IMG/VR virus record: IMGVR_UViG_3300035698_019437
Location: 64,001-128,000 of that record
DNA: 64,000 nucleotides
Source: a virus
Direction: 5' to 3' (one strand)
Shown: piece after piece, positions 36,660-54,111 of the stretch
Layout of the letters: every line of letters starts with the position of its first letter
How positions within the stretch are numbered: the first letter of the stretch is position 1
Notes under the pieces: model-generated
Databases searched by the model: none
What the model was told of the DNA's origin: nothing
Seen by the model: the letters and a program-made list of their open reading frames with translations, nothing else
Position numbers and translations under genes: made by a program

Positions 36660-37510
36660 TGGAAGATATCACTAAATTAAGAGAGTTGCTGGAAAAGAAA
36701 TACGCTAAGAAGTTTTGTGATATAGATGATATTTCTAAATGCCCTCATGGTGATAAGTGTACGTGTAAAATAGCTGCTGAAATTAAAGCATATTTGTATA
36801 CTATTATTCCATCTTCTTTTAGAAATCTTACGTTATCAGATTTTGATGGTCGTAATGGAGATGGGAAGCAGCTTATTTCTGATGGGGTTGCTCTGAAAGC
36901 AAAGAAAAAGATTCTTAGCTATTGTTGGAAAGATGTATCCTTGAATAATCTAGTTGGTCCTAAAAAACTTACAACGGATCAGTTGGACTCTTATTCTATT
37001 ATAGATAACAGGAGATATTCTGGTGATAACGTTGTTATTTATACAGATTCTCCTACTCAAAGTAAAGGGTTGACTGGTAAAGGGAAAACTATGGTAGCTT
37101 CTTTGATTATGAAAGAAGCTATAAAAAGACGATCTTCGCCAAAACATAGTTCTGATACATATGAGTGGATTTCATTTAGAAGTTTGTTGCAAAAAATCAA
37201 GTTAGAAGATAGGGGAGATAGATATATCAATCTCTCGGATATAAAGTTTTGTGACTGGCTTGTTGTAGATGATATACCAGACGATTTCGGAAGGACCGTA
37301 AAAGGTCAGGATTATATTTCTTCTATATTAGACCCATTCTTTTCAGATAGATATACTGCTAGACTTCCAACCATATTCGTATTCAAATTTGATATTATGC
37401 AACCATCGGTTGAGATAGAAAGAAGTTTCGGTATATCAATTGGAAAAGTTGTACAAGATTCTCATACTACATTAATACCTCTGTGCGAATATAATAATGA
37501 TAACGGATAA
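36659..37510 (+). CDS. DnaC/DnaI-like helicase loader ATPase
   Basis: Cys-rich N-terminus, IP..F...TL.DF, GKGKT Walker A, WLVVDD Walker B, R....LPTI; directly upstream of DnaB. Confidence 0.72.
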   Translation: MEDITKLRELLEKKYAKKFCDIDDISKCPHGDKCTCKIAAEIKAYLYTIIPSSFRNLTLSDFDGRNGDGKQLISDGVALKAKKKILSYCWKDVSLNNLVGPKKLTTDQLDSYSIIDNRRYSGDNVVIYTDSPTQSKGLTGKGKTMVASLIMKEAIKRRSSPKHSSDTYEWISFRSLLQKIKLEDRGDRYINLSDIKFCDWLVVDDIPDDFGRTVKGQDYISSILDPFFSDRYTARLPTIFVFKFDIMQPSVEIERSFGISIGKVVQDSHTTLIPLCEYNNDNG

Positions 37511-38984
37511 ACAGAAAATAGACATCGAAAGAGACTTTATAGCTTTACTTTTGAAGCATAAAGATTTGGTATCAGAATGGATTGAAGGTGGACCTTCTAC
37601 AGACTTTTTCGATGAAACACATCACTTATTATTGTACGCTATCATGTCAGCCTACAATAATAATGCATTACTGACTTTAAGAGGTTTAAGAGGATTCTTA
37701 ACTGTTCAATCTTCTAGCAAATTAAATAATCTAGCTCATGAAAAAGAATTCAACTTAGCTAATATGGCTTTTGTTGGTAAAGATGATTTTCATGTGTTGC
37801 GTACTAAAATTACAGAAGCGCACGTTTCAAAGAACTCGATAGATGCTATTCAGAATTTTAGGAATGACTTGGGTTCTAAAGGGGCGATGTTTGCTGTTAA
37901 GAAGTTAGAAGATAGTCTGTCTAGTCTTGTGCTTAATACGGAAGTGCAGAAACCTATCGTTTATGAGTCTTTGATGGATTATATGCCAGAGTTTATGCAT
38001 CTTCTTGAAGCAAGGAAGGATGGCAACGGCGAAGAAATCATTTCTTGCGGAATCAAGGAAATAGATTATGCGATGGTTGTAGGGTTCGCTCCCGGTACTT
38101 TGACTTTGTTTTGTGCAGATGTAGGCGGATATAAAAGCACGATGATGCTTAACATAGCCGTGAACATTTGGAAGAAATCAAAGAAGAACGTTTTGTTCGT
38201 ACCTCTAGAAATGCCAAAAGACAAAATCGCAGAAAAAATACTTTCTAGAGAAACAGGTATTCCGTTCGAAAGGTTTGAGCATAGTGAACAACTAACCGAT
38301 GATGATTGGAAAAAAATCAAAGAGTTTAGTGAAGAGAGAAAAAATTGGGATCATAAGTTGTTTATTATGGATGCACCTGAACGTATTCCAGTATCTGTTA
38401 TTCGTAGAGAAATAGAAAAGCATATAGATATATTCCAACCCAACTTAGTGGTTGTAGATTACATAGCAAACTTGATTCCTGATAAAAGATATAGAAATGA
38501 CAGAAACGACTTGCAAATTGGTGAGATGTTGAAAGACTTGAGACATATGGGAAGGGTTAATAGTATTTCTAAGAAGGGCTTTGCGATTGTATCTGCTGCT
38601 CAAATAGGTAGAGAGGGATTAAAGCGAGTAAGAAAGCTAGGTGCAGGTAAGAGTACATTCTATTCAGAAGATTTGAGAGGTAGTCATGAATACGCTGCTG
38701 ATGCGGATAATATATTCGGACAAATGGAAGACCCCTCTCAGCCTACTTCTAATTTACAGCTAGTTGTTATTAAAGCGAGATACGGAAGAAAGACTTTTTC
38801 TGATGGAAAAGTTAAATCCATATTGGATATCAAACCAGAGATTGCTTTAATTCAAAGTAAAGATGAGGCATGGCTTAATTCAGAACAAGCTCAAGCTAAC
38901 ATCCTTACCAAAGTAGATACTCCTGACGAGGATTGGGATATACAGATAGATTCTCCTGATTTTGGAGTAGATGGACAGATATGA
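37497..38984 (+). CDS. dnaB: Replicative DNA helicase DnaB-like
   Basis: SCGIKEID..GF.PG.L, variant Walker A ADVGGYKS, LEM, VVDY, AAQIGR, DADN, KARYG. Confidence 0.88.
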   Translation: MITDKQKIDIERDFIALLLKHKDLVSEWIEGGPSTDFFDETHHLLLYAIMSAYNNNALLTLRGLRGFLTVQSSSKLNNLAHEKEFNLANMAFVGKDDFHVLRTKITEAHVSKNSIDAIQNFRNDLGSKGAMFAVKKLEDSLSSLVLNTEVQKPIVYESLMDYMPEFMHLLEARKDGNGEEIISCGIKEIDYAMVVGFAPGTLTLFCADVGGYKSTMMLNIAVNIWKKSKKNVLFVPLEMPKDKIAEKILSRETGIPFERFEHSEQLTDDDWKKIKEFSEERKNWDHKLFIMDAPERIPVSVIRREIEKHIDIFQPNLVVVDYIANLIPDKRYRNDRNDLQIGEMLKDLRHMGRVNSISKKGFAIVSAAQIGREGLKRVRKLGAGKSTFYSEDLRGSHEYAADADNIFGQMEDPSQPTSNLQLVVIKARYGRKTFSDGKVKSILDIKPEIALIQSKDEAWLNSEQAQANILTKVDTPDEDWDIQIDSPDFGVDGQI

Positions 38985-39649
38985 GCAAAGCAAATAAATA
39001 TCTTATAGATCAGATAAGAAAGAAACATAAGATAACTGAGTTCTTAGCGTCTAAGAATATACAGCCAAAGAATATAGGAGATCGTAGAATAGGCTACGTG
39101 TGTCCAATACATAATGATAGTCAACCTTCTTTCTTTGTATATACAGACCCTGGAACATATGAAAACTATTTTTGTTTTGGATGCAAAAGTTTTGGTGACA
39201 TTATATCTTTGTATGCAGCTATGGAAAAAGTGTCGTGGTTAGAAGCTATAAACATACTAGGAAAGGGTATGACGGTTTCTGACGACCATAGACTTGATGT
39301 AACTATAGATGAAATCAAAAAAGAGATATCAGACATACATGAAGATAAACAAGATAATAAGTTTGGTGAGTTTTCTTTGTTAATATCTGTAATGGGTAAT
39401 AACCATGCCAGAAAGACCGAACAAGATAAAGCAGAGTTAGAATTACTAGAACAGTTATACCAGAGAATAGACAAAATGGTTCATGAATACAACATAGACG
39501 AATTACAAGAGATGTACGAATACATAACTGGTAATAACAGTTTAGGAAGAAATGCATTTGAATACCGTATGTCTATATGGTATTGTAAGCAGCAAGAGAA
39601 ATTGAAGAAAGAACTTCATATGGAAAACGTTTTTAATGAAGATGGTTAA
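38981..39649 (+). CDS. Stand-alone DnaG-type CHC2 zinc-finger (primase zinc-binding domain) with helical C-terminal region
   Basis: CPIHNDSQPSF..YFCFGC..GDII...E..S..EA matches the DnaG ZBD; no TOPRIM domain follows. Confidence 0.85.
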   Translation: MSKANKYLIDQIRKKHKITEFLASKNIQPKNIGDRRIGYVCPIHNDSQPSFFVYTDPGTYENYFCFGCKSFGDIISLYAAMEKVSWLEAINILGKGMTVSDDHRLDVTIDEIKKEISDIHEDKQDNKFGEFSLLISVMGNNHARKTEQDKAELELLEQLYQRIDKMVHEYNIDELQEMYEYITGNNSLGRNAFEYRMSIWYCKQQEKLKKELHMENVFNEDG

Positions 39650-40376
39650 AAAACTTAGAAATCCCATAGACTTAGAAATAATACAACGTATATATGACAT
39701 GTACGTTGAAAAGGCGTATTTAGAAACCCAATTTCAAACGGATATAGATTTATACAAAATATCCGATGAACTGGAAATGGATTGCAGACAGCTATATGAA
39801 AGATTGAAAATATGTGATTATAAATTTTCAATAAAAGGGTATAGGCATAAGTTTATGCCTTCTTATCATAAGGATGAGAAACTTCCTTCTAAACAGCAGA
39901 AGGGACATAAAGGAAAGCATAATTTGAGATTTCCTTTAGTAGAATATGCGTTGGCTAAATTGAAAGCAGAGTACCGTACAACAAATTTATTGGATAGAGC
40001 TAATGAAAATCAGATTAAGACGAATAACAAACAAAATAAAATTAGTATTACGATTAAAAAATGCACGATAGCAATGGTATGTTTTACGGCGTTAATGTTT
40101 GTCTGTATGATTTCTAATGTAGTAATATCTGTTATGGATTATAAGAAGGATAATATTCATCTCCCCTGTAGTAATATAGGAGAGGTGAATAAAAATGGCA
40201 TTGAATATAACAGAGAAAGAATTACGGAGTTTATACGTCGATCAGAATTTATCGAGTTATCAAATAGCAAAAATATACAACACGAAAGGACAGTCGATAC
40301 AGTATTATATCCGGAAATTTGGTATCCCTATGAAGCAAAGAAATGGAAAGTACCAAGTACCATTCCGAGTAAATGA
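39636..40376 (+). CDS. Hypothetical protein with a probable transmembrane segment
   Basis: Hydrophobic stretch CTIAMVCFTALMFVCMISNVVISVM; 3' end overlaps the endonuclease gene by 182 nt. Confidence 0.55.
   Translation: MKMVKKLRNPIDLEIIQRIYDMYVEKAYLETQFQTDIDLYKISDELEMDCRQLYERLKICDYKFSIKGYRHKFMPSYHKDEKLPSKQQKGHKGKHNLRFPLVEYALAKLKAEYRTTNLLDRANENQIKTNNKQNKISITIKKCTIAMVCFTALMFVCMISNVVISVMDYKKDNIHLPCSNIGEVNKNGIEYNRERITEFIRRSEFIELSNSKNIQHERTVDTVLYPEIWYPYEAKKWKVPSTIPSK
40154..40191 (+). promoter_or_regulatory. RBS-sequestering RNA hairpin upstream of the homing endonuclease
   Basis: tattcatctcccctgta-GTAA-tataggagaggtgaata: 17-position stem with 1 mismatch and 2 G:U pairs, GNRA loop; the 3' arm contains the SD GGAGAGGTG; ATG at 40195. 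Confidence 0.8.
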
Positions 40377-41127
40377 AAAATACTTTTTAAAATGGTCATA
40401 TAATATGGCATATGTTTTAGGCTATATTGCCGCAGATGGTTGTGTTAGACCAGATAAATATGAACTCAAATTGAAATCTATAGATTATGAGTTACTTGAA
40501 TTTGTTAGAGATCAACTTTCTTCTAATTATGATATAAAGAAAGAAAAAAACTCTTCCTGCTATGTTTTGTATTTATATGGTAAAAAGCTTGTTTCAAGTT
40601 TAGTACAATTAGGGATACATCATAGAAAGACTTATAGCCTTGAAATGCCGGATATTCCGGATAAATATTTTTGGGATTTTTTAAGAGGGTATGTCGATGG
40701 AGATGGCTGTATACAGGTGTCAGAACACAATAGAAGCATATCAATAGGTATTGTTAGTACTAAGAAATTTTTAAATGATGTTTTAAAAGAATTGCATGAT
40801 CGCATTGGATGCAAAAAGTACGTTTTGAATTGTAATATGAAATCAAAAGTCAATGCGTCTGTTAACATATATGGACGACATGCTTATAATGCTATGAAGC
40901 ACATGTACGATAATAAAAGATTTGCGATTAGCAGGAAAAAATATGTAGTAAAAAAAGCTCTTAAGGTATACAAAAATACTATTAAGTGTAAGTTGTGTAA
41001 TAAGACAATAGACTTTGCTCATAAAAATCGCAAGTTTTGTAAAAAGTGTTCTTATGAAAGAAATAAAGAAATATGGAGTCAACATGGCAAAGACTGGTAT
41101 AAGAATCATGAAAGAATACGAAAATAA
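40195..41127 (+). mobile_element. Free-standing LAGLIDADG homing endonuclease with N-terminal HTH and C-terminal CxxC pairs
   Basis: YVLGYIAADG and FLRGYVDGDG motifs; LRSLYVDQNLSS..IA HTH; CKLC..CKKC. Confidence 0.9.
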
Positions 41128-41884
41128 AATCATTACAGGTGATTCTCTTAAAGTACTTAAAACTATACCAGATGAAGTTGTTTCTTTAACAGTTACATCT
41201 CCTCCTTATTGTTTAAAAATTAAGTATAATTCCTATGAAGATGATATGCCATATGATGAATATATAGATTGGTTAAAATCCATATTTCAAGAGGTTTATC
41301 GTGTAACTAGAAAGGGTGGTCGAATAGCTATAAATATAGATGCTATGACCAACCGACAAGAAGATAAAGATAAAGAATACGTAAGAGCTATATATGCCCA
41401 TCTTTATAACAAGATGAAAGAGATAGGATGGAAATTCCGTACGGAGATATGCTGGTACAAACAGAATGCCGTAGGACGTGCAACTGCTTGGGGTTCTTAC
41501 AAATCTCCATCTAATCCCATTATACGAAGAAATCATGAATATGTGTTGGTATGGTCAAAAGAAGAGTGGAGATTGGAAGGCACAGAGAAGCCTGATATAA
41601 CGGCAGAGGAATTTCAACATTGGACACTTAGTACATGGTTCGTACAACCAGAAACTAGGAATGTGGGTGGTCATCCTGCTCCATATCCTAAAGAACTTGT
41701 TAGAAGGGTTATAAAACTATTTTCCTATCCTGGCGATGTTATACTGGACCCGTTTAATGGCATAGGAACGACTACGCATGTAGCTAAGATGAATAACAGG
41801 AAATACGTAGGAATCGACGTAGATTCTGAATATTGTAAATATACTAGAGAAAGAATGGAAAAGAGTAAGGACTTATTGGCTTGA
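41108..41884 (+). CDS. DNA methyltransferase, N4-C/N6-A beta class
   Basis: TSPPY catalytic motif N-terminal to HPAPYP and LDPFNGIGTT (FxG); likely ATG start at 41108 (MKEYENKII). Confidence 0.92.
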   Translation: MKEYENKIITGDSLKVLKTIPDEVVSLTVTSPPYCLKIKYNSYEDDMPYDEYIDWLKSIFQEVYRVTRKGGRIAINIDAMTNRQEDKDKEYVRAIYAHLYNKMKEIGWKFRTEICWYKQNAVGRATAWGSYKSPSNPIIRRNHEYVLVWSKEEWRLEGTEKPDITAEEFQHWTLSTWFVQPETRNVGGHPAPYPKELVRRVIKLFSYPGDVILDPFNGIGTTTHVAKMNNRKYVGIDVDSEYCKYTRERMEKSKDLLA

Positions 41885-42330
41885 GTGAAGATGAGAATGA
41901 ATTTGACTTAGAATTTTCAGATATGACTCTGATTGAAGCCAAAGGTAACTACGCTAAAGTAGTTGAGATCATGGATGATGAATTTACAGGTGATGTATGG
42001 ATGCTACGTACAGATGTGACCATTGCAACTGATGCTGGTTCTACTTTTATGGTATTGCATTTTTATAATGACGGAAATGTTTATATCTTCAAATATATGC
42101 CATCATCATCTGATATATTCTTTAATACTGATATACAGTATTTATCTTGGTGGATGCAAGATAGTGGCTGGAATGTTCCAAGAGTTCATAAAGAATTGAT
42201 AGATGAAAACATTTATATGTGGAAACAATATTGGGAAACAATGCTAGTAGATTCTGAATATCTAGATGGTATGTTCGGAGAAAGAATTGCAGATTATTCT
42301 GATGAAGAGGACGATGATAGTATAGAGTAA
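41881..42330 (+). CDS. Acidic hypothetical protein
   Basis: TTG start overlapping the MTase stop; fills the gap. Confidence 0.65.
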   Translation: MSEDENEFDLEFSDMTLIEAKGNYAKVVEIMDDEFTGDVWMLRTDVTIATDAGSTFMVLHFYNDGNVYIFKYMPSSSDIFFNTDIQYLSWWMQDSGWNVPRVHKELIDENIYMWKQYWETMLVDSEYLDGMFGERIADYSDEEDDDSIE

Positions 42331-42347
42331 ACATAAGGAGTTACAAA

Positions 42348-43040
42348 ATGCCTATTAAACATAACGAAAAAGATGTCATTATAGATTTTGAGTATAGTGA
42401 AGAACCCGATGATACAGGTACGGTTAGAGGGATTAATAGATTTAAAATACGTTATCATTTTATAGAGAGTTTTGGAGCTACAGTTTCGTTAGCCCCTTAT
42501 AATAATGAATTCAAATCCTTTGACGATAATGGACATAGCTATATATCCATGCCCGCAGAGATGATAGCAGAAATAGCCGATTTCTTAATTAGTAAGGGTA
42601 TGATTGAAGGTAGGGGAATTCCTGTAAAACGTAAACCATATAACACTACCCCAATATCTGATGGGACAAAGAAAAAGACTCCACTTTCTGGTACTAATAT
42701 ATCTGGTAATTTAGAAATTCCTAATCCTCATAATACCGCAACGTTGTCTTCTCCTAAAGTAGAAAAGACTTCGGAATACGAAGCTGAATTGTCTGCTCCG
42801 CTGGTTGAGACAATGGATACTGTTGAGGGAGAACCTATACAAACGTTTTCAGGTGGTGATGACATAGAATATGAAGAAACTGTTGTGGCTCCTGATCCTG
42901 TTCCTCAATTGAGTAGTCCTAGAGTTATGCCAAAAACAAAAGAAGTTAATCCAGCAGTAGCTGAATTGTCTCAAGAGAGAGAAAAAGCTTCTGAAAGAGC
43001 ATCTACCGGGGAAGAACAGAATAAGATAAACAAACGATAA
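42348..43040 (+). CDS. Hypothetical protein with disordered Pro/Glu-rich C-terminal half
   Basis: AAGGAG RBS; low-complexity tail. Confidence 0.7.
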   Translation: MPIKHNEKDVIIDFEYSEEPDDTGTVRGINRFKIRYHFIESFGATVSLAPYNNEFKSFDDNGHSYISMPAEMIAEIADFLISKGMIEGRGIPVKRKPYNTTPISDGTKKKTPLSGTNISGNLEIPNPHNTATLSSPKVEKTSEYEAELSAPLVETMDTVEGEPIQTFSGGDDIEYEETVVAPDPVPQLSSPRVMPKTKEVNPAVAELSQEREKASERASTGEEQNKINKR

Positions 43041-43255
43041 TGGAATACCAATGCAAGACAATATCGATTGAAGTATTACCAATAGGTCATCAAGGCACTA
43101 TATGCCCTTTATGTGACATATGTTCGTCTATGGACTGTTCTAATCCAATTCAGAAGTCTAAGGTTAGCGTTCAAGGCATCACAGAAGAACACAGAACGTA
43201 TATGAGGGGCAAAGAGCCATATTACGTTATAGCATGTCAGGGATTTATAAAATGA
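43040..43255 (+). CDS. Small Cys-rich (putative Zn-binding) protein
   Basis: CPLCDIC...C...C; coupled on both sides. Confidence 0.6.
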   Translation: MEYQCKTISIEVLPIGHQGTICPLCDICSSMDCSNPIQKSKVSVQGITEEHRTYMRGKEPYYVIACQGFIK

Positions 43256-44049
43256 GAAGATTTTCGCTTTCTGATGTTATGAGGTTTAAGGAAGCAAAGA
43301 GAAATGCTTTCCAAAAACAAATCGCGCTGTCCGAAGGACATATAGAGAAGATCAAAAATCATAAGAGTACAAAGATTGTAAAATGGTCTGACTCTCCTAA
43401 AGCATTTGCTTATGTGGATGCTTTATTCCCAGAAGCAGAGGTTGATAAGGTCTGTGTATACTCTCCCGATAGCTCATTGACCAGTAGGCTTGGTTACAAG
43501 GGTATTGGAGGGTTCTTTAGTAGAGTCGATAGATGTATTGTTATACCTAAAGAAAACAAAAGAAAAATCAAGAAGAATAACATTGATATTTGGGAGCAAG
43601 TTAGCGCAAAGGTTTCTTTCGATGAAGTTCTTGTACATGAGTTGTTGCATTATGCATCTAATTGCCAGAAAAAGGGTTTCAGTAGTGTAGAGATGGAAGA
43701 AGAATTTGCATATGGGAATTCCATAGAATATCTACGTAAAAAGAAATATACCGATGAAGATATCATTAATAACAACTTCATGCCATTTTTGATTGCTACA
43801 TTGGACATGAAAAAAATCGTTCAAGGGGTTTTAGCATTTCACGGGTATACGGTATGGGACATGAAGAATTGGTCTGAGGATAAACAGAAACGAATAATAA
43901 AAAAGCATGAAGAAGATATATTTAAGTCAGCTACTACAAAAGCATTTAAAAAAGGTGAAGAACTTATAGGAATATATGCTAGATATCCAGAAGATATAGA
44001 AGTAAAGATTGACGATGGATCAGCTAGGTTCAACTTACTGGATTTATAA
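43252..44049 (+). CDS. Putative zincin-like metallopeptidase
   Basis: GGFF..VLVHELLHY..EEEFAY (HExxH plus downstream E); ATGA-overlap start at 43252. Confidence 0.65.
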   Translation: MRRFSLSDVMRFKEAKRNAFQKQIALSEGHIEKIKNHKSTKIVKWSDSPKAFAYVDALFPEAEVDKVCVYSPDSSLTSRLGYKGIGGFFSRVDRCIVIPKENKRKIKKNNIDIWEQVSAKVSFDEVLVHELLHYASNCQKKGFSSVEMEEEFAYGNSIEYLRKKKYTDEDIINNNFMPFLIATLDMKKIVQGVLAFHGYTVWDMKNWSEDKQKRIIKKHEEDIFKSATTKAFKKGEELIGIYARYPEDIEVKIDDGSARFNLLDL

Positions 44050-44534
44050 TGCTTAAAGTGAATTGGAATCAAATTGATGGATCATATATCTATCTCGATA
44101 GTGATGGATATCTGACATTCAGACCACAGGATGCTAATGGTATACCTAATAAAGGTATCGGTCTTGTAAGCCAAAAAGGGATGTCTGGTATTTCTAAGCT
44201 AGGCTCGTATGGAGTAAATATTGATTTAAGTATAGAAGTATTTGATTCTTCTATGAACCCTATGGTTAGTGTTGATCAAGATGCGGCGTATAATGCTTTG
44301 AAAGTTATACAGGGAAAAAATCCAAATTCAAATTCCATAGAGGGTATAAGTATGGGTGACATAGAGGAATCCCAGTTATTAGAAGTAAAGATGCCAAGTA
44401 ATCCTCCAACAGTTGTTGATGGAAAGCTCGTTCTTGATGCAAATAAAAAAAATGGCAATATAGCGAGTAAAAAAGATTCTAAAGGCTATGAAAAATCTTA
44501 TAAGTTTATTGATATAGAAGATTCAGATACATAA
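44049..44534 (+). CDS. Hypothetical protein
   Basis: Coupled by TAATG at both ends. Confidence 0.65.
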   Translation: MLKVNWNQIDGSYIYLDSDGYLTFRPQDANGIPNKGIGLVSQKGMSGISKLGSYGVNIDLSIEVFDSSMNPMVSVDQDAAYNALKVIQGKNPNSNSIEGISMGDIEESQLLEVKMPSNPPTVVDGKLVLDANKKNGNIASKKDSKGYEKSYKFIDIEDSDT

Positions 44535-44809
44535 TGCCAACATATTCATATAGACATCCAGAAAGTGGTGAAATCTTAGAAGATTTTAGAACCATAAGCA
44601 AAAGAGAAGAACCATTTATAGCTCCCGATGGAGCGGAATGTGAATTCGTTCCATTCTGTCATGGGAAAGCTCCTGAGATAGGCATTGGTAAAAAAGAAGG
44701 ATGGGAACTTGATGAGAAGTTCTATCGAAAGACTAATCCAAAATTTGTAAAATATCGCGATGGCCGAAGAGAACGATATGATCCTAATAAGCATCGTAAA
44801 CAATATTAA
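44534..44809 (+). CDS. FmdB-like (degenerate zinc-ribbon) small protein
   Basis: MPTYSY..P..GE..E N-terminus is typical of FmdB-family proteins, but the CxxC pairs are lost. Confidence 0.55.
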   Translation: MPTYSYRHPESGEILEDFRTISKREEPFIAPDGAECEFVPFCHGKAPEIGIGKKEGWELDEKFYRKTNPKFVKYRDGRRERYDPNKHRKQY

Positions 44810-45168
44810 TGAGATATATACGTCAACAACAATTTATTACAACTGTCACCGATCAAGAAATTAAAAAACACGATGACATAAATAATCTTCTAACTGCTAT
44901 AAGAAACGGAAGTGCAGATATCCATTTAGTCTATGAAGATGCAAGAACGTCTTCTATCATATCCCATAAAAAAACTCGTATTAAAAAAGTGGAAGACGGT
45001 AAAATAGACATTACATCTTTCGGTAAAAGCGGTAGCATCTCTGTCAAAAATATTACTTTTGATAATATCATATCGATTAGAATAGTGACAGATACTGAGA
45101 ATATAATGGTAGATGAAAAGAAGATTACAAGAGCAGATTTACTTGATATAGAAATAGAATCGGAGTAA
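44809..45168 (+). CDS. Hypothetical protein
   Basis: Coupled ORF; no recognised family. Confidence 0.65.
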   Translation: MRYIRQQQFITTVTDQEIKKHDDINNLLTAIRNGSADIHLVYEDARTSSIISHKKTRIKKVEDGKIDITSFGKSGSISVKNITFDNIISIRIVTDTENIMVDEKKITRADLLDIEIESE

Positions 45169-45173
45169 TCAAT

Positions 45174-46487
45174 TTGCAATTCTCTAACTCAAACTTTGTT
45201 CATTGTCATGTACACTCAGAGTATAGTCAGTTCGATGGAATATGTTCTATCAATAAATTGGTTATGAAGGCTAGAGAGATGGGTTTTCCTGCTTTAGCTT
45301 TGACTGATCATGGTTCGGTAGGTGGATGGATTAAGTTTTTGAATGAGTGTAATGCAACGAAAACCAAAAAAGGAGAATCTATTCCTTTTCCAAAAATTAA
45401 GCCTATTCTTGGAAGTGAACTATATGTTTCTAAGGATATGTATGCTCAGAGTAAAAATGAGCAGCCAGAAGGCAGGAAGGGAAACCGTCACTTAGTACTG
45501 CTTGCTAAAAATTGGGAGGGTTACAAGAATCTAGCTAGATTGTCCAATGCGTCTTGGACAAAGGGGGTATATTATAATCCTCGTGTAGATTTCGACTTAT
45601 TGTCGAAACATTCTGAAGGTATTATAGCTAGTTCTGCATGTCTTTCAAGCGTTATAAATGCAAATTTGTTACATGATAGATATGATCAAGCTAAGGCTGC
45701 TTCATCTTTATTTAAAGATATTTATGGTGAAGACTTCTTCTTAGAAGTTATGTATCACGGTATTGATGCTCAACGAGTAATTATAGCTGATATATTTAAG
45801 CTAAGTAAAGAACTGGATATTCCTGTAATAGCTACAAATGATGTTCATTATCTTAGCAAGGCTCAATCCAAATCTCATGAAATTTGGATGTGTATGAAAA
45901 GCGGTGATAATGTTAAATGTATTCATGATACAAAAAGAATCAAGTTCCCGTTCCCAGAAATGTATTTGAAAAGTGCAGAAGAGATGTCAGTTGTATTTGG
46001 GGATTCTCCTCAGATTCTTTTCAACACTCTATCTATAGCGGAAAGAGTAGATGATGCTGATATAAATAAAAACCTCTTTGGTGGTATGAGACTTCCTGTA
46101 TTTCACGTGCCAGAAGAATTTGAAACTTCTTACGACTATCTAAAGAAGTTATCATTAGATGGTTTAAAGAAACTTGGTTGGGATAAAAGCCCACAGCACG
46201 TAGAAGCGTTTGAAGTTGAGATGGAAGATATAAGGATAGCTAAAGAGAATAACGATTATGATTTTGCTACATATTTTCTTATCGTAAGAGATTATATCAA
46301 AAATGCGAAATCAAAGGGGATTCTTTGTGGACCCGGTAGAGGTTCAGGTTATGGAAGTGTTGTTCTAAGATGTATAGGAGTTACATATGGACCAGACCCA
46401 TTAAAGTATGGATTGCTTTGGGAAAGATTCTTGGGTTTTGATAACAAAAGATTTGTTATGGAAAAAGACTTTGGTTTTGAGGAATAA
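45174..46487 (+). CDS. dnaE: DNA polymerase III alpha, N-terminal fragment (PHP domain + start of palm)
   Basis: FVHCHVHSEYS.DG, ALTDHG, GSELY, HLVLLAKN..GY.NL, TNDVHY, GPGRGS..GS, DPLKYGLLWERFL, then stop. Confidence 0.93.
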   Translation: MQFSNSNFVHCHVHSEYSQFDGICSINKLVMKAREMGFPALALTDHGSVGGWIKFLNECNATKTKKGESIPFPKIKPILGSELYVSKDMYAQSKNEQPEGRKGNRHLVLLAKNWEGYKNLARLSNASWTKGVYYNPRVDFDLLSKHSEGIIASSACLSSVINANLLHDRYDQAKAASSLFKDIYGEDFFLEVMYHGIDAQRVIIADIFKLSKELDIPVIATNDVHYLSKAQSKSHEIWMCMKSGDNVKCIHDTKRIKFPFPEMYLKSAEEMSVVFGDSPQILFNTLSIAERVDDADINKNLFGGMRLPVFHVPEEFETSYDYLKKLSLDGLKKLGWDKSPQHVEAFEVEMEDIRIAKENNDYDFATYFLIVRDYIKNAKSKGILCGPGRGSGYGSVVLRCIGVTYGPDPLKYGLLWERFLGFDNKRFVMEKDFGFEE

Positions 46488-46488
46488 T

Positions 46489-46656
46489 ATGCTTCATAAT
46501 GAAATGGCAGATATGTTTGTTATAAAATATAAAGAAGAATTGTCAGAGTTAGTTAAGGATGTGCCTCGATTAAGGTGGACAATAGTTCAGGAATTCAAAG
46601 TAAATTTTCCTACTGCCATGTCGGTGGTGAAACATATAATGGAGAATAACAGATGA
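46489..46656 (+). CDS. Small hypothetical protein (55 aa) between the dnaE halves
   Basis: ATG immediately after the dnaE-N stop with GAGG upstream; ATGA overlap with the next gene. Confidence 0.5.
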   Translation: MLHNEMADMFVIKYKEELSELVKDVPRLRWTIVQEFKVNFPTAMSVVKHIMENNR

Positions 46657-47174
46657 TGATAGATGATTTTATGAGTGATCTAGACTTTTTAAGAATTGCG
46701 TATCGCGTAGCAGAACAACATTCAACTGATCCAAGCACCCAGAACGGTGCCATTCTTGTGAAGAAGTGTTTTGATCCTAATTCCATACAAGTATGGGGCA
46801 TGGGCGCTAACCATTTTCCAGAAGGTGTGAAAGATATTCCCGAGAGATGGGAAAGACCACAGAAGTATGGATATGTAGAACACGCTGGAAGAAACGCTAT
46901 ATACGATGCCGCTAGAAAAGGTTTTGGTACAGAAGATTTAGTAATGTACTGTCCTTGGTTTGCATGTTCTGATTGTGCTAGAGCTATCATACAAGCAGGT
47001 ATTTCAGAAGTTATAGGTCATCAGGATCAACTGGATCGAACTCCTGAGCGATGGATGGAAACGATTGATGTCGCCCTTAATATGCTTAAGGAAGCCGGTG
47101 TTGACTATAGATTTGTCCCTGGCAAAGTTGGTGGAGTAAAGATTACATTTAATGGAGAAATTATTGAGCCGTAA
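46653..47174 (+). CDS. dCMP deaminase-family protein (catalytic HxE reads HAG)
   Basis: S.DPSTQNGA, HAGRNAI, PWFACSDCARAIIQAGI. Confidence 0.88.
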   Translation: MMIDDFMSDLDFLRIAYRVAEQHSTDPSTQNGAILVKKCFDPNSIQVWGMGANHFPEGVKDIPERWERPQKYGYVEHAGRNAIYDAARKGFGTEDLVMYCPWFACSDCARAIIQAGISEVIGHQDQLDRTPERWMETIDVALNMLKEAGVDYRFVPGKVGGVKITFNGEIIEP

Positions 47175-49135
47175 TGTCTGATATTAGAAACGAAATTCTG
47201 AAGCATATAGGTGATGTTGATTCTAAGTCGTGTGATAAGGTTAATATTGAACTTGATATCATGGAAATCACTGATGCTTTAGAAGGTGGAAGCTCTCTAG
47301 AAGTTTTCTATGATATATGGCAAAAGAATCGTCATAGAACAGGAAAAACCAACAACGTAAATAGTTGGACTGCTTATCTATTAGGCATTACGTCTATGAA
47401 ACCTGATGGCGATTTTATGCCTGAACGTAGAGCATTTGCAAGAGCAGGATTTCCTGATATTGATTCTGATTTTGACTATTTCAGAAGAGATGAAGTCTAT
47501 GATTATATTATAGATAAGTTTGGTCGAGATAATGTAGCTAACATAGGAACGTATCAGGCTTTAAAGTTGAAATCTGCTGTTCGTCGTATAGGTAAGGTTA
47601 TTGATATTGCAGGAGCTTATCATAAGGGTAAAGATAAATATACAACTGAAAATGAGAAAAAAGTTTCAGAGATTATCAATTCTTTGCCTTTCCAAGTTGG
47701 TGCAAAACTAAAAATAAAAGACGATAGCGGTGAAACGCAAGAAATAAAATCAATTGAAGATGCATACAAGTACTGTAAAGATTTTAGATATTACATGGAC
47801 AAGTATCCTGATATTCGAAATCATGCTAAGAACATTGAAGGTCTTCTTTCTATATTTGGGAAGCATGCCGCAGGTATTGTTGTTTCTGATGTTCCTTTAG
47901 ACGAAATTGCTCCTGTTAGAACGGCAAGAGGCAATAGTCTTGCAACACAGTTCGTGTTGGATGAGCTAGATCAGATCGGACTTATTAAGTTTGATATTCT
48001 TGCTTTAAGTGCGCTTACTGTAATAGATAGAGCGGTCAGTATGGTTAAAGAAAACTATGGTATAGATATAGACATAGAAAATTTGCCATTAGATGACTCT
48101 AAGACCTTGGCTCTTTACAGGACTGGGAAACTTGCTGGGGTATTTCAAGCTGAAACAAGTGCAATGCAAAAAACTATGATGGATATCAGTATAAATAGAT
48201 TTGAAGACATCATAGCTTCAATTGCGTTGTTTAGACCTGGCCCAATGGATAGTATTCCAGAATATTGTGCCAGAAAAAGAGGAGAGAGAAGTGTAGAATA
48301 TTTTCATCCGTCTATTGAGCCACATGTTAAGAAGTACTTAGAAGGTACATATGGAGTTTTGGTTTATCAAGAGACGGTTATGCAAATATGTAATGCCCTT
48401 GCAGGTTTTTCTATATCCGATGGTTATGTTGTCATTAAGGGTATTGGAAAGAAGAAAGAACATATTATTAAGAAGTTTAGGGGTCAGTTTATAGAAGGTT
48501 GCGTGAAGAATGATGTCCCTAGAGATGTAGCAGAAAAATATTGGGACAAGTTCATTACTCCGTTTGCATCTTATGGATTCAACTTAGCTCATAGTTGTTG
48601 CTATGCATACTTGAGTTATATAACCGCTTATCTCAAAGCAAATTATCCTGACGAATTCATGTGTTCTTTCTTGAACGTAGAAAATGAAAGAAAGAATCAC
48701 GATAAGGTCGCGGTACTTATGAAAGATTTGAAAAATTTCAATATAGAGCTAGGCCCAAAAAGAATTAACTCATGTAGCGTAGATTTTTGTATTGTGAAAA
48801 AGAGGGATGTATCATCTGGTATAGAGAAAACCGTTATATCCCCAAGTATTGCATGTAAGGGTGTAGGGTCAAATAGTGCAGAAGAAATAGCTAAGAATGG
48901 TCCTTATGGAGGTCTTAGAGACTTAGCTACTAAAACCAGTTCTAATATAGTAGATCAAGAAGTAATCAGCAACTTATTCGACGCAGGGTTTTTTGAATCT
49001 TATCTTAAAGATTATAAAAAGAAGAATAAGAAGGCAATGACCAAAGAATTATTGGTTAGTCGATTTGCTTCTATAAGAGAAGATATGAAGAAAGCCGCCC
49101 AGAAGGGCGTAATATCAAAAGACCTATTTGGTTAA
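47174..49135 (+). CDS. dnaE: DNA polymerase III alpha, C-terminal fragment (catalytic PDIDxD, fingers, HhH; no OB domain)
   Basis: FPDIDSDF, GKHAAGIV, GLIKFDIL, GVFQ, ALFRPGP, TYGVLVYQE, FASYGFN.AH, YLKANYP.EF. Confidence 0.93.
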   Translation: MSDIRNEILKHIGDVDSKSCDKVNIELDIMEITDALEGGSSLEVFYDIWQKNRHRTGKTNNVNSWTAYLLGITSMKPDGDFMPERRAFARAGFPDIDSDFDYFRRDEVYDYIIDKFGRDNVANIGTYQALKLKSAVRRIGKVIDIAGAYHKGKDKYTTENEKKVSEIINSLPFQVGAKLKIKDDSGETQEIKSIEDAYKYCKDFRYYMDKYPDIRNHAKNIEGLLSIFGKHAAGIVVSDVPLDEIAPVRTARGNSLATQFVLDELDQIGLIKFDILALSALTVIDRAVSMVKENYGIDIDIENLPLDDSKTLALYRTGKLAGVFQAETSAMQKTMMDISINRFEDIIASIALFRPGPMDSIPEYCARKRGERSVEYFHPSIEPHVKKYLEGTYGVLVYQETVMQICNALAGFSISDGYVVIKGIGKKKEHIIKKFRGQFIEGCVKNDVPRDVAEKYWDKFITPFASYGFNLAHSCCYAYLSYITAYLKANYPDEFMCSFLNVENERKNHDKVAVLMKDLKNFNIELGPKRINSCSVDFCIVKKRDVSSGIEKTVISPSIACKGVGSNSAEEIAKNGPYGGLRDLATKTSSNIVDQEVISNLFDAGFFESYLKDYKKKNKKAMTKELLVSRFASIREDMKKAAQKGVISKDLFG

Positions 49136-49148
49136 TTGGAGAAATTAG

Positions 49149-49454
49149 ATGTCAGAACAAACACGCAAATCTATTATTCATAAGACAATCACTAGAAAAC
49201 TTAGTACCGCAAAATTTGAGAGTCTAGACTTAACTGTTGAATTTGAAGAAGAGGTAGAGTGGAATTCTATTAAAGAAAGACAAGAAAAGTCCGATAAGAT
49301 TACAAAGCTTCTTTTGGTTGATTACACGAAAACAAGAAATGCTGTTTTGGATGTTCTTGGTTTGACAGAAAAGAAAGCGTCTGTAAGCAGCACAGTTACA
49401 ACTAAAAGCAAAGAATATAATGTTCAAGAACTCGGCTTGGACGATTTGAAATAG
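49149..49454 (+). CDS. Small hypothetical phage protein
   Basis: GGAG RBS; TITRKLST..FES motif seen in small phage proteins near replication genes. Confidence 0.65.
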   Translation: MSEQTRKSIIHKTITRKLSTAKFESLDLTVEFEEEVEWNSIKERQEKSDKITKLLLVDYTKTRNAVLDVLGLTEKKASVSSTVTTKSKEYNVQELGLDDLK

Positions 49455-49462
49455 GAGTAAGT

Positions 49463-50449
49463 ATGAAAGATTTAGATGATATTTTTGATATACCTACAGA
49501 GAAAAAAGAACAGCAAGAAGATGATCCGAATACGAAGTTCGGAGACAAAGTTGCAGACGTTGTAGGAGATTTGTCTAAAGACTCTGTAGCTTTGGAAGTT
49601 ACGCATGTTATGGCAGCAGATGATGCGCCTCCCGGCGTAGCTGAAGATTTAGAGAAGATAGTTGAAGCTAAATCAGAACCCGAGTCTCTTCCAGAAGAGG
49701 TTGTACCCGCACAAGGTGGTGAAGAAGTAGGGAAATATTACGACGAACCCGGTGCCATACCAGGTGGTCCATGGATACTTAAAAGTCCAAATTCTATGTA
49801 TGATAATTTCTATGAAGAGAAGAAGGAATTATTAACACAGATACTTGTTGATGGAGCTATACCATTTCCTAAATACAGGAACGAGCTTAAAACAAGTAGC
49901 GTAGATATATCTGTAGTTACCTTTGATAAAGATGAGATATACCAGAAGATGTCTGCTGTTCAAGGTTTGAAAGAAAGAGTTAAGCAAATTCAAATTCATT
50001 GCAATAGCCAATTTTTTCTTTGGGAACGTTCTTTACAGCTTATGCACGGTGTTCTAGCTCGTATAGATTACGAAAAACCAGTTGTTAAGAATGAAGGCGT
50101 TGTATATGAACATATGAATGATATGGAAAGATACTTTGGTAATCTTAAAGGGTTGACCAAATCTGCTGATGCTGTTATGAAGACGCTAGAAGGTGCGTTT
50201 GATTGTCTTTCCAGGAGAGTAACTATAGCTATGCCGATGCGAGGTATAGAAAGAAAAGAACCTCAACCTCAACTGCAACCGCAACTGCAACCTCAACCGC
50301 AACTGCAACCTCAACCGCAACCCAAGTCGGAAGAAATGTCTTATTTCGATAAATTAGATTCATCTGCGTCTAAGCAAATTATTGAAAGTCATAAAGTTTC
50401 TGAGAAAAAAGTCAAGGGTACACAAAGTGTGAGTTGGGGAAACATATAA
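49463..50449 (+). CDS. Hypothetical coiled-coil protein with PQ repeat (possible recombination mediator)
   Basis: AGGAG RBS; helical core; directly upstream of SSB and RecA. Confidence 0.6.
   Translation: MKDLDDIFDIPTEKKEQQEDDPNTKFGDKVADVVGDLSKDSVALEVTHVMAADDAPPGVAEDLEKIVEAKSEPESLPEEVVPAQGGEEVGKYYDEPGAIPGGPWILKSPNSMYDNFYEEKKELLTQILVDGAIPFPKYRNELKTSSVDISVVTFDKDEIYQKMSAVQGLKERVKQIQIHCNSQFFLWERSLQLMHGVLARIDYEKPVVKNEGVVYEHMNDMERYFGNLKGLTKSADAVMKTLEGAFDCLSRRVTIAMPMRGIERKEPQPQLQPQLQPQPQLQPQPQPKSEEMSYFDKLDSSASKQIIESHKVSEKKVKGTQSVSWGNI
50261..50323 (+). repeat. Hexamer tandem repeat (CCTCAA/CTGCAA/CCGCAA) encoding PQPQLQPQLQPQPQLQPQPQP
   Basis: Ten consecutive NNNCAA units read directly. Confidence 0.9.
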
Positions 50450-50492
50450 TAGTAATGTTGTCAAATAATGTTCTACTTTAGAGGAGATCGCA

Positions 50493-51158
50493 ATGAGCAA
50501 TGAGATTAACTGGAAGGAAGTTGGCGAGAATTCCAAGCTGAATTCATTTGATGGAGAAAGCAAGAAGATTAACTTTTTAAGGTTGTCAAGTGGACAAACT
50601 TATAAAGTAAGACCTTTGGGAAGTCCTGTTATGTTTTACAAGTATGTTGTAAATCACGAGGGTTCTTGGCGTTGGGCTATTTGTTCTGATCCTGATACGT
50701 GTCCCGTAAGAAGCAAGCATAATGTAGAGCCAAGAGAGCGATATGCTGTCAATATCATCGACCGTTCTGATGGTCAGATTAAGATTATGGAAGGTCCGGT
50801 TACTGTATTCAAGAAGTTCAGAGAGTACTTCGAAATGACTGATGCCTCTCCCGGTGGGAAACAAGGTGCTGATTTTATTATCAAGGTAACTGGTGCTGGA
50901 TTAAAGACTCGTTACGAAGTTTCTAAGGATCAAAGAACCCCCTTCACTGAGGAAGAGACTGCTTTTATCAAGGATAACTTCTACACGCTAGAGAATATTT
51001 TTAAGGCTACTCCGGAAGATGAGATTGAAGATGTATTGTTCGGAGAAGGTAAGAAAGAAAAGGTCAGCGAACCGCAAGTTGCTGTTGCGGAACCTGCTCC
51101 TTCGCCTACTACCACGACTGAAGCTGCTGCAACAGATGGTGATGAGCTTCCTTGGTAA
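50493..51158 (+). CDS. Phage ssDNA-binding protein (gp32-like)
   Basis: FL.L..G....VR.LG, C..CP, RYAVNIIDR.DG, G.DF.I..TG.G..TRY; acidic tail DGDELPW; GAGGAG RBS. Confidence 0.8.
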   Translation: MSNEINWKEVGENSKLNSFDGESKKINFLRLSSGQTYKVRPLGSPVMFYKYVVNHEGSWRWAICSDPDTCPVRSKHNVEPRERYAVNIIDRSDGQIKIMEGPVTVFKKFREYFEMTDASPGGKQGADFIIKVTGAGLKTRYEVSKDQRTPFTEEETAFIKDNFYTLENIFKATPEDEIEDVLFGEGKKEKVSEPQVAVAEPAPSPTTTTEAAATDGDELPW

Positions 51159-51207
51159 TATGATTCTTTAGCAACTTAACACTGTTTATATATACAAGGG
51201 AGATGCT

Positions 51208-52446
51208 ATGTCAAAATCAAAAGATATTGTAGTAGAAAATTTGAAAGGGTTTGTAAGAAAAGGAGCATCTTCTTGCAGTCCGGGAAATATCCCGACTGGT
51301 CATTTCCCTCTTGACTTTGTTATTCATCACGGGACTACTCCCGATAAAGTCGATCTCAACAAAGTAGATGGATACGATCCCTCTAAGCCACTAGGTTTAC
51401 CGCTTGGAAAACTTATCGAGATTTTCGGTGGGGAAGGAGCCGGTAAATCTAGTTTGGCTTATAGGGTAGTAGGATATGCTCAGAAGCTAGGGCATGCCTG
51501 TGCGTGGCTAGATACTGAAAATAGCTTTGCTGAGAACCTAGCTACAATTAACGGTGTCAATAAAGAAGAACTGTATTATTCTGATATGTCAACTGAGGAA
51601 GAACTAGATAAAGTCTTCTATGCAGAAGATGTTTTTGACGCGATTATAACTCTTATCAAGAGTGGCGTTAAGGTTATTGTCTTAGACTCAGTTGCAAATT
51701 TAGTCCCGAAGGTTCGTATGGAAGCACAAGCAGAACAAAGAACTGTTGGTGTCCTTGCTAGACTTATGAGTGAAAATCTTGGGAAGATTGTTAACTATGC
51801 TGGTAGTCATGGAGCTATGGTTATCTTTATCAATCAGTTAAGAGAAAAGATCGGGGTTTTCTTTGGAAATCCAGAGACAACTCCTGGCGGTAGAAGTCTA
51901 AAGCATAATTGTTCTGTAAGGATTCAGATTTCTAAGAAGGGCGGCAAAGAAGCTGATATCTTCATAGAGAACGAAGAAGGCAATGAATCTCTTATCGGAA
52001 GATATGCTAGAGTGAATGTTAGAAAGAATAGAATGGCTAAGCCATACATGGAAAGCATTTTGGTTCCTGTTTATTACGAAGCATATTTCCCAGACATTGA
52101 GGAAATGCTATTTGATGTCGGTCGTCAACTCAAATTGATTTCAGTTAGAAAAGGCGTATTTAAATGGGAAGACAGTAAAGGAAAAGAACATAAGTTGGAT
52201 GGCAGAAGAGCTTTCATTGATTACATTAAAAGTAATAAGTTGGAGTTTTTGCTTGCTAATAGCCTTATCGCTAAGGCTGCTGAGGTAGGCGTATTTTTGC
52301 CGCCAGAAATTACTCAATGGTATATGAATAATACGAAAGCAGAAGAGGGTATCGGAAGTGACGAAAAAACATCCAATAAGGAGGGATCGGCTTCCGGACG
52401 CAGAAAGGGAAAAAGTAGCAAGGTGGGCGACGGAGACTCTCAATAA
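51208..52446 (+). CDS. recA: RecA/UvsX recombinase
   Basis: IPTG..LD, GLP.G..IEIFGGEGAGKS, DTE, VLDSVA, ARLMS, FINQLREKIG..FGNPETTPGGR.LK, KNR. Confidence 0.95.
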   Translation: MSKSKDIVVENLKGFVRKGASSCSPGNIPTGHFPLDFVIHHGTTPDKVDLNKVDGYDPSKPLGLPLGKLIEIFGGEGAGKSSLAYRVVGYAQKLGHACAWLDTENSFAENLATINGVNKEELYYSDMSTEEELDKVFYAEDVFDAIITLIKSGVKVIVLDSVANLVPKVRMEAQAEQRTVGVLARLMSENLGKIVNYAGSHGAMVIFINQLREKIGVFFGNPETTPGGRSLKHNCSVRIQISKKGGKEADIFIENEEGNESLIGRYARVNVRKNRMAKPYMESILVPVYYEAYFPDIEEMLFDVGRQLKLISVRKGVFKWEDSKGKEHKLDGRRAFIDYIKSNKLEFLLANSLIAKAAEVGVFLPPEITQWYMNNTKAEEGIGSDEKTSNKEGSASGRRKGKSSKVGDGDSQ

Positions 52447-53101
52447 AAGAGAAAATGGAGAATCAAAAGAAGCGTTTGAGTATTTGAGAGATGTTAGAGG
52501 GCTATCTGAAAGAACTATTAAGGACTTTCGAATAGGTTATGTTCCCAAGAGTGTCCAGAATGAGTACGGTAATAGACACGAATGTGCAGGTAGGATCATT
52601 TTTCCTATCTTCGATGCCTATAACAGTTTAGTAGCTTTATCTACAAGAGACTGGCGAGAAAATGCCAAGATGAAACATTGGCATGAAAGTTTTGCCAAAT
52701 CTCTTTATCTATACGGTTTGAATGCTGTAAAAAAATGGGTTTCTCATTATAATCTTTGTATGATAGTCGAAGGTGAATTTGACCTATTCTCCGTATATAA
52801 TGTAGGGTTATATCCAGTTGTAGGTACTTTGGGAACATCTCTTAACCTTTTTCAAATTTCCATGCTTAAAAGATATTGTGATAACATATACCTTATATTT
52901 GATGGTGATGAACCTGGTAGGAATGCGACTCAAAGAGTGTTAACTGTAAGTAAACAACATGGGTTATCTAGTTTCGAGATAAACATAATACCTGTATATA
53001 TGCCTGAAAAATCAGACCCCGATAGTTTCGTCAGACAAAACGGCAAATCATCATTTGTAAGTTTGATGCGCGAAGCTAAGAAATTGAAAGAGAAGAAATA
53101 A
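52358..53101 (+). CDS. dnaG: DNA primase DnaG catalytic core (Toprim_N + TOPRIM) lacking the zinc-binding domain
   Basis: YL...RGL....I..F.IGY, GRIIFPI, LYGL, IVEGEFD, GT.L...Q, FDGD.PG..A, KSDPDSF; no CHC2 motif. Confidence 0.9.
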   Translation: MTKKHPIRRDRLPDAEREKVARWATETLNKRENGESKEAFEYLRDVRGLSERTIKDFRIGYVPKSVQNEYGNRHECAGRIIFPIFDAYNSLVALSTRDWRENAKMKHWHESFAKSLYLYGLNAVKKWVSHYNLCMIVEGEFDLFSVYNVGLYPVVGTLGTSLNLFQISMLKRYCDNIYLIFDGDEPGRNATQRVLTVSKQHGLSSFEINIIPVYMPEKSDPDSFVRQNGKSSFVSLMREAKKLKEKK

Positions 53102-54039
53102 TGGATAATTGGAATATGGTATCTCCTGACGTTGCTGCTGTCATGGGAGTTGTTGATACTGTTATGCAATGGAAGCGTCTTGGTTCTCACCGTTCTTATA
53201 TACATTATCATCCTTCTGAATTTGGTAAATGTCTTCGAAAGATGCAATACAAGCATTATGAATCGCTTGGTCTTATTGGACCCGCTAAAGAAGAATTAGA
53301 TAGTAAGCTTCTTAGATTGTTTGATAAGGGTCATAATATGCATGCGAGATGGACAACCTATTTTGAAGCTGCGGGAGTGTTGAGAGGATACTGGGTTTGT
53401 CAGAATTTGCTTTGCGATAAATCCAAAGATGGTAGAAGAAAGATTTATGGTTTGGATGATGTTCTTGGGGTATTTAAACCAGAAGTATGCGAATGTGGAT
53501 GTAAACTTTTTGCTTATGAAGAAGTAAAAGTTGAAAGTAAAGAGATGAATGTATTTGGTCATGCTGATATGATCTTAGATTTTTCTGCTTTTGACGGGAG
53601 TTCACTTAAAGGAGTCGATCCACAATTCACAATAGCAGATTTACCAAGTAAACCGATTGTAGTTGATATGAAAACTGCCAATGACAATAGTTTTAAAAGA
53701 GTCATAAAAGATGGTCCGTCTCCCGAATATCAAATACAGCTAACTATCTATGCCAATATACTTGGATGCCAGTATGGTCTTCTAGTATATGAAAATAAGA
53801 ATAATTCAGTAACTGCTAGTTATAAAATAGCTACAAAGACTGATACCCTTTTTGAACTTATAAATCGTCAAGCGAAGTTAATGATTGAAATGGTTCCACA
53901 TAAATTATTACCTCCACCTAGACCTAATAAGCGTGATTGTTATGAATGTAAAGGATGTCCCTTCAACGCAGTATGCAAGAAGTCCGGTATTTGGGAGAAT
54001 CCTAAATTGGAAGAGATAAAGAAAAAGTTTTACGGCTAA
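53101..54039 (+). CDS. Cas4-like PD-(D/E)xK exonuclease with Fe-S cysteines
   Basis: HPS..GKCLRK, G...H, GHAD, DMKT, Q...Y, C..C..CPF...C. Confidence 0.82.
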   Translation: MDNWNMVSPDVAAVMGVVDTVMQWKRLGSHRSYIHYHPSEFGKCLRKMQYKHYESLGLIGPAKEELDSKLLRLFDKGHNMHARWTTYFEAAGVLRGYWVCQNLLCDKSKDGRRKIYGLDDVLGVFKPEVCECGCKLFAYEEVKVESKEMNVFGHADMILDFSAFDGSSLKGVDPQFTIADLPSKPIVVDMKTANDNSFKRVIKDGPSPEYQIQLTIYANILGCQYGLLVYENKNNSVTASYKIATKTDTLFELINRQAKLMIEMVPHKLLPPPRPNKRDCYECKGCPFNAVCKKSGIWENPKLEEIKKKFYG

Positions 54040-54111
54040 GTCTATATGCCAAATGCTTTTGCCGATACACTAAATTAGTAATACTTGATAACTAATTCGA
54101 AGGAGAAACTA

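Follow-up and report, generated by a model that had tools for sequence, protein, structure and literature searches.

Bacterial DnaG primase is a single chain that combines a zinc-binding domain (ZBD), a catalytic domain and a helicase-binding domain. In such one-piece primases the ZBD reads a trinucleotide of the template, and experiments with bacterial primases have shown a ZBD working in trans, on the catalytic domain of a different molecule (PMC2978363). The primase fragment of T7 gp4 and the T4 primase gp61 consist of a ZBD and a catalytic domain only and have no DnaG-type helicase-binding domain; their ZBD is on a flexible tether and can serve an adjacent subunit. For jumbo phages, the survey of Iyer et al. 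2021 (Viruses 13:63) recorded in one sentence that stand-alone primase zinc ribbons accompany DnaG-like Toprim primases, and it also reported a PolIII alpha split into distant genes (PMC7824862). Here we describe two primase genes in a stretch of 64,000 nucleotides (nt), called the window below, which comprises bases 64001-128000 of the 147-kb IMG/VR virus record IMGVR_UViG_3300035698_019437. One gene encodes a ZBD followed by a helical tail (the ZBD-tail protein) and the other a stand-alone DnaG catalytic core. They lie 12.7 kb apart with about 20 genes between them, and the two products together probably constitute the DnaG-type primase of the phage, made from two polypeptides. Such an arrangement has been recorded before but left uncharacterised; the feature itself is real and conserved. 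The record is rated 29% complete and is therefore a fragment of a huge phage, with a genome estimated at several hundred kb.

The ZBD-tail gene is directly coupled to dnaB, its ATG overlapping the TGA of the helicase gene as ATGA. The same overlap occurs in one related contig (L006), and the two genes abut in another (L014). PF01807 (Zn_ribbon_DnaG) is the sole family match of the protein, covering residues 7-99 with an E value of 2e-15, which bears out the original prediction of a CHC2 zinc finger with a helical region, coupled to dnaB. Across 54 homologues of the ZBD-tail protein, three of the zinc ligands (C41, H44 and C65) are invariant, and the fourth, C68, nearly so. An AlphaFold model based on these homologues has a mean predicted local distance difference test score (pLDDT) of 91.7, and its residues 1-100 superpose on the zinc-binding domains of Geobacillus DnaG (1d0q, Z 11.6) and Aquifex DnaG (2au3, Z 11.4). 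The CHC2 zinc-binding domain with four ligands that is expected of a DnaG-type primase is present here, on a separate polypeptide. An exhaustive HMMER search with the ZBD-tail protein recovered 208 cluster representatives at E<=1e-10, strong relatives despite which a word-indexed homologue search with the same protein returned nothing. Among the 150 of the 208 representatives that were listed, nearly all are about 190-230 amino acids (aa) long, and in most of them the alignment spans the greater part of the protein and includes the tail. Structure comparison of the tail gave matches to generic helical bundles only (Z <= 7.9). A profile search for longer proteins in which the tail is fused elsewhere matched only ordinary DnaG, through the ZBD. 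Other phage matches of the ZBD-tail protein, in the abalone shriveling syndrome-associated virus and in Helicobacter prophages, were set aside as ordinary fused primases of about 530-540 aa.

The core gene has a GTG start behind a GAAGAGGG ribosome-binding site. This start is 89 nt inside recA, so that the gene overlaps the recA 3' end. A P-E-x-E-R-x-K motif encoded within the overlap is conserved across 17 core homologues, with R17 invariant and E16 and K19 invariant or nearly so; the overlap is therefore real coding sequence of the core. Pfam finds neither a ZBD nor a helicase-binding domain (PF08278/PF10410) in the core protein, and together with the coordinates this upholds the earlier description of the gene as Toprim_N and TOPRIM only, with an 89-nt overlap with recA. 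The C-terminal helical subdomain of the bacterial catalytic domain is missing as well. By contrast, the acidic residues of the active site are intact: the positions E138/G139/D142, D182/D184 and D220/D222, in the motifs EGExD, DGD and DPD, are invariant in 17 core-only homologues. The core family profile, compared with the PDB, matches Aquifex DnaG (2au3) over residues 123-351 with an E value of 3e-37. A model of the core based on 16 homologues (pLDDT 92.6, predicted template modelling score 0.88) superposes on the E. coli DnaG core (1dde) with a template modelling (TM) score of 0.81 and a root mean square deviation of 2.4 A, and it matches 1nui, the T7 gp4 primase, with an E value of 4.5e-9. 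Matches to PF08275 and PF13155, the EGxxD, DxD and DPD motifs and this similarity to 1dde identify the protein as a DnaG catalytic domain. About 20 core-only relatives of 235-250 aa share 37-57% identity with it, several of them on contigs of 124-351 kb, and a locus scan with the core as single query gave no match. Directly upstream of the core gene, recA is found in the L004/P0020 contig, L005, L012 and L014; the order recA, core, PD-(D/E)XK nuclease, with the genes overlapping or abutting, is shared by the window and four related contigs. The conserved zinc ligands, the Toprim acidic motifs and the confident models that superpose on DnaG indicate that both parts are intact and under selection.

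The separation of the two genes is not peculiar to the window. The remainder of the genome, as far as the 147-kb record covers it, was searched as the original prediction had proposed, and over the whole record there was a single match to the ZBD and a single match to DNAG_N. The arrangement of DnaG, with both domains in one chain, does not occur here. The split is kept in eight related genomes (L006, L014, G001-G005 and Bacillus phage G) and is common to every close relative examined, which answers the earlier question about its conservation. Each of the first seven, all large, has exactly one ZBD-tail open reading frame (ORF) and exactly one core-only ORF, 8.6-17.7 kb apart. The former spans 179-218 aa, or about 600 aa where an intein is present, and the latter 235-258 aa. 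Both ORFs have conserved counterparts in many genomes, 27-60% identical and with their motifs intact. Two of the related genomes are complete, namely phage G and G002; the latter measures 460,978 bp, carries direct terminal repeats and has a completeness rating of 100%. No fused DnaG frame was found in either, and neither they nor the record of the window have a match to a Prim-Pol or archaeo-eukaryotic primase. G002 also has two sub-threshold matches resembling primase zinc ribbons, at C1:378566-378733 (20.3 bits, in a 254-aa frame) and at 280778-280903 (15.8 bits, in a 162-aa frame). In five more distant large phages (G006-G010), whose core identity is at most 31%, ZBD and core are found in one frame of 288-563 aa, and the split is therefore derived. 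Judged from these comparisons, it is an old trait that is fixed in a single clade of huge phages replicating with PolIII alpha, Bacillus phage G included. The split-bearing relatives of 224-497 kb fit the jumbo-phage pattern of a zinc ribbon beside a DnaG-like Toprim protein, as does the record of the window.

Inteins home to conserved sites of important proteins, mostly replication proteins. Homologues of the ZBD-tail protein of about 600 aa (P0047, P0076, P0084, P0144 and P0157) were considered as unsplit ancestors and rejected, since the core does not align with them and the insert is a LAGLIDADG intein. It comprises about 380 aa and is placed directly before the fourth zinc-ligand cysteine, C68 in the window; the homologue at L099:1465-3186 carries it as well. 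This site looks like a recurrent intein homing site in the primase zinc finger. The presence of inteins at the zinc site of the ZBD-tail protein was counted in favour of a primase of two polypeptides.

The proposed mechanism divides the work of a one-piece primase between the two proteins. The core carries the complete RNA-polymerase active site in its 247 aa. The ZBD-tail protein would contribute the zinc finger, the part of a one-piece primase that chooses the template trinucleotide and initiates the primer. Produced together with DnaB from overlapping genes, it probably sits at or near the DnaB hexamer, possibly held there by its helical tail. It would act in trans on the core, much as in DnaG or T7 gp4, where the ZBD of one molecule serves the catalytic domain of a neighbour, and the core would be recruited to it at the helicase. 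The premise of the original prediction, that a primase ZBD can serve another catalytic domain in trans, agrees with the published experiments (PMC2978363). Two intact, conserved genes and the lack of any other primase in the complete relatives were counted for a primase of two polypeptides. Of the naturally two-subunit enzyme predicted earlier, the separate, intact and conserved genes and the lack of a full-length DnaG in two complete relatives are borne out, and the binding of the two proteins to each other is the part that we infer. A bridge from the helical tail to DnaB and a role of the core in recombination-dependent replication, both suggested earlier, would be inferences of the same kind; the link of the core to recA is one of gene order only, which is loosened in phage G. 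A joint reading goes further and is doubtful: the ZBD-tail protein would stay bound to DnaB permanently as a specificity factor, its tail replacing the helicase-binding domain, and a free core would be shared by DnaB forks and RecA D-loops. If this were true, separate subunits could permit a switch between origin-dependent and recombination-dependent priming.

Several observations weigh against a two-polypeptide primase coupled in this way. Related phages are expected to share both genes through common descent, so that finding the two together is not an independent sign of partnership. A full-length primase elsewhere would have overturned the original prediction; none is present in G002 or phage G, and with a record that is 29% complete, a fused dnaG elsewhere in the genome of the window is excluded only by analogy with these complete relatives. 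In phage G the ZBD gene, gp229, is two genes away from the helicase gene, gp226, and the core gene is on the opposite strand at a distance of 5.5 kb from recA; neither the dnaB coupling nor the recA coupling is therefore universal. When the tail was compared with DnaG helicase-binding domains and the DnaB N-domain, no specific match emerged from Pfam, a profile search of the PDB, Foldseek, VIA-align wide or the ESM Atlas, a result which does not show that the folds differ. The coupling of the ZBD-tail gene to dnaB, and not to the core, together with a tail that is a family-specific helical bundle, would also suit a core that is a self-sufficient minimal primase. The ZBD-tail protein would then be an accessory of DnaB (a loader, a regulator, or an origin- or single-stranded-DNA-binding factor) with no part in priming. 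We regard this as unlikely. The characterised DnaG, T7 and T4 primases need the ZBD for template recognition and initiation (PMC2978363; general knowledge), and all four zinc ligands are kept in the ZBD-tail homologues, C68 nearly invariantly. Moreover, wherever a genome encodes a ZBD-less core, it also has exactly one ZBD-tail gene, and no additional one occurs in the fused relatives.

The conserved order of recA, core and nuclease could also mean that the core belongs to a recombination or repair module with RecA and the Cas4-like nuclease, where its priming is restricted to recombination intermediates or it works on DNA ends, while host DnaG primes the forks. This appears improbable, as the core is a full DnaG RNA-polymerase domain by its fit to 1dde and not a Toprim of the RecR or OLD type. 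In addition, it is not adjacent to recA in phage G, and the phage has its own DnaB, PolIII alpha and primase zinc finger, which argue for its own replisome. The fork-priming and recombination roles of the core are not mutually exclusive. Inteins and homing endonucleases are abundant in this genome and its relatives, which would be in keeping with two ORFs that are left over from a broken primase gene, either as pseudogenes or through an assembly artefact, or that are rejoined after translation by a split intein. There is very little chance of either, given that both ORFs retain intact motifs at the level of identity stated above in many genomes. Trans-splicing as in cyanobacterial DnaE was specifically considered and rejected, because N- and C-intein parts were not found. 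Neither protein has a Hint or intein Pfam match at E<=0.01, and the ZBD-tail C-terminus, a confident all-helical bundle, and the core N-terminus, a conserved helix, are not intein-like. A DnaG-type primase made from the ZBD-tail and core proteins is thus the reading that we prefer.

Table 1. Genes of the replication and recombination block in the window, and genomes in which ZBD and core are separate
Feature or genome	Position in window	Strand	Description and matches
AAA+ ATPase	34938..36659	+	573 aa; opens conserved helicase module; PF00004 AAA, E 1e-27
Conserved protein immediately upstream of dnaB	36659..37510	+	283 aa; no Pfam match
DnaB-type replicative helicase	37497..38984	+	495 aa; PF03796 DnaB_C, E 3.3e-24; phrog_19, E 3.8e-51, residues 6-433
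ZBD-tail protein	38981..39649	+	222 aa; CHC2 ZBD (~1-100), linker, helical bundle (~126-221); PF01807
RecA/UvsX-like recombinase	51208..52446	+	412 aa; PF00154 RecA, E 5.6e-49; phrog_97
Stand-alone DnaG catalytic core	52358..53101	+	247 aa; Toprim_N + Toprim; Pfam DNAG_N, Toprim_2/Toprim/Toprim_4
PD-(D/E)XK (Cas4-like) nuclease	53101..54039	+	Directly 3' of core gene; PF12705, E 2.6e-4; phrog_1706, phrog_1990
NCBI SDBU01000076.1 (124 kb)			AAA, 272 aa, DnaB, ZBD (200 aa); 14.4 kb downstream RecA, core (238 aa), nuclease, SpoVS, UvrD
ENA contig (111 kb)			ZBD (218 aa) abuts DnaB; core (234 aa) 12.8 kb downstream
Five IMG/VR records (G001-G005), 101-461 kb			One ZBD-tail and one core-only ORF each
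Bacillus phage G, 497,513 bp			ZBD gp229 (211 aa) and core gp419 (235 aa), 154 kb apart, opposite strands

The window has a G+C content of about 35%, and its plus strand carries nearly all long ORFs. Both primase genes are part of a replication and recombination block (Table 1), which begins with the AAA+ ATPase, the 283-aa protein, DnaB and the ZBD-tail protein. It continues with a free-standing LAGLIDADG endonuclease, an N6/N4 DNA methyltransferase and the pieces of PolIII alpha around a dCMP deaminase, and it ends with RecA, the Toprim core, the Cas4-like nuclease and SpoVS. A megablast search of window positions 38000-54000 against phages gave no match. Of the related contigs, L006 has a 568-aa AAA protein in the slot upstream of dnaB that the AAA+ ATPase fills in the window, and the AAA protein of L014 in this slot is split and contains an intein. 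In L014, an ENA contig, the ATPase with its intein (L014:2491-4780) is called as two ORFs (481 and 233 aa) separated by one of 46 aa, and it is another replication gene of the clade invaded by a mobile element. The position of the 283-aa protein is occupied by proteins of 272 aa in L006 and 268 aa in L014. The phage G gene that precedes its DnaB-type helicase, and so corresponds in position to that of the 283-aa protein, has the annotation of a DnaC-like helicase loader. A gene for translation initiation factor IF3 is located upstream of the helicase module in relatives (L006:966-1463; L014:1972-2427).

Downstream of the core, the PF12705 match of the PD-(D/E)XK nuclease has a score of 21.5 bits, slightly under the Pfam cut-off of 22 bits, and the protein also matches Cas4-domain exonucleases (phrog_1706, E 1e-23; phrog_1990, E 3e-20). 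ORFs of 334-337 aa occupy the same position in relatives. The nuclease is followed by a SpoVS homologue (54085-54459, plus strand; PF04232, E 2e-17), which is kept downstream of the core in relatives and hints at a spore-forming Bacillota host. Slightly further downstream of SpoVS, relatives have a UvrD helicase, one copy of which contains an intein. In the window, a 640-aa ORF at 55061-56983 (plus strand) has an intein with a LAGLIDADG domain (Hint_2, Intein_splicing).

Mobile elements are also seen between the two primase genes. The free-standing LAGLIDADG endonuclease (40195-41127, plus strand; phrog_4645, E 2e-47) overlaps both of its neighbours, an unassigned 246-aa ORF (39636-40376) and the complete N6/N4 DNA methyltransferase (41015-41884). 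In L014 the methyltransferase comes directly after the ZBD gene, so the endonuclease and the 246-aa ORF have the look of inserted DNA. PolIII alpha is encoded by two genes on the plus strand, at 45174-46487 and 47174-49135. The first (437 aa) contains the PHP domain and the start of the NTPase domain, and the second (653 aa) contains the rest together with the finger and HHH domains. Between them are an 82-aa ORF and the dCMP deaminase (46653-47174). The PolIII alpha of relatives is a single 1400-aa gene with an intein (L012, L014) or consists of adjacent pieces with a LAGLIDADG ORF (L006), and in the P0020 contig the pieces are separated by eight small genes. The PolIII alpha junction has no room for a split intein.

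The high novelty implied by the original prediction does not stand, as PMC7824862 already mentions the arrangement and the phage G record annotates both genes. What is added here is the conserved helical tail, the couplings to dnaB and recA, and the lack of a fused enzyme in complete genomes. The fused state of the more distant relatives and the intein hotspot at the zinc site are also added. The idea of a trans-acting primase zinc finger stems from engineered fragments and chimeras, and a naturally split primase would be a ready-made test system for it. The split is conserved over deep divergence and is present in the cultivable Bacillus phage G. Such a system might also reveal how a core that has no helicase-binding domain reaches the fork. 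For annotation, it follows that in these huge phages neither gene called 'DNA primase' would be a whole primase, and a missing domain in such a gene should not be taken as gene decay.

Compared with the primases of E. coli, Aquifex aeolicus and Geobacillus stearothermophilus, the two proteins have the same CHC2 fold, the same Toprim_N and Toprim fold and the same acidic motifs. They differ from bacterial DnaG in being encoded by two genes, in a core that is without the C-terminal helical subdomain and the helicase-binding domain, and in a ZBD that bears a family-specific helical tail. In T7 gp4 and T4 gp61, where a DnaG-type helicase-binding domain is likewise absent, the domains are covalently linked and, in T7, fused to the helicase, whereas here they are the products of separate genes. 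Cluster A mycobacteriophages provide another case from cultured phages, a DnaG-type primase annotated as two ORFs (for example Kampy gp55/gp54). These ORFs are adjacent with an overlap of about 185 nt, and a frameshift product is possible, whereas the genes described here are independent, kilobases apart and in different operons. The survey of jumbo phages places the stand-alone zinc ribbon in its 'group 2', T4-like phages with a family B polymerase, while the present clade uses a PHP-PolIII alpha replicase (PMC7824862). It does not analyse the tail, the gene couplings, the missing fused enzyme or the mechanism. In the literature searched, neither the phrase 'split primase' nor a functional study of the pair was found, and the phage G pair is annotated there but not discussed as a split enzyme. 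Bacillus phage G (NC_023719), cultured and complete, has the same two-gene architecture, and its gp229 and gp419 are both annotated 'DNA primase'. Its proteins are only 22-27% identical to those of the window, and its genes are not directly coupled to dnaB or recA. Nevertheless, its ZBD-tail homologue is near the DnaB-type helicase, and its core-only homologue is the sole Toprim primase match in the genome.

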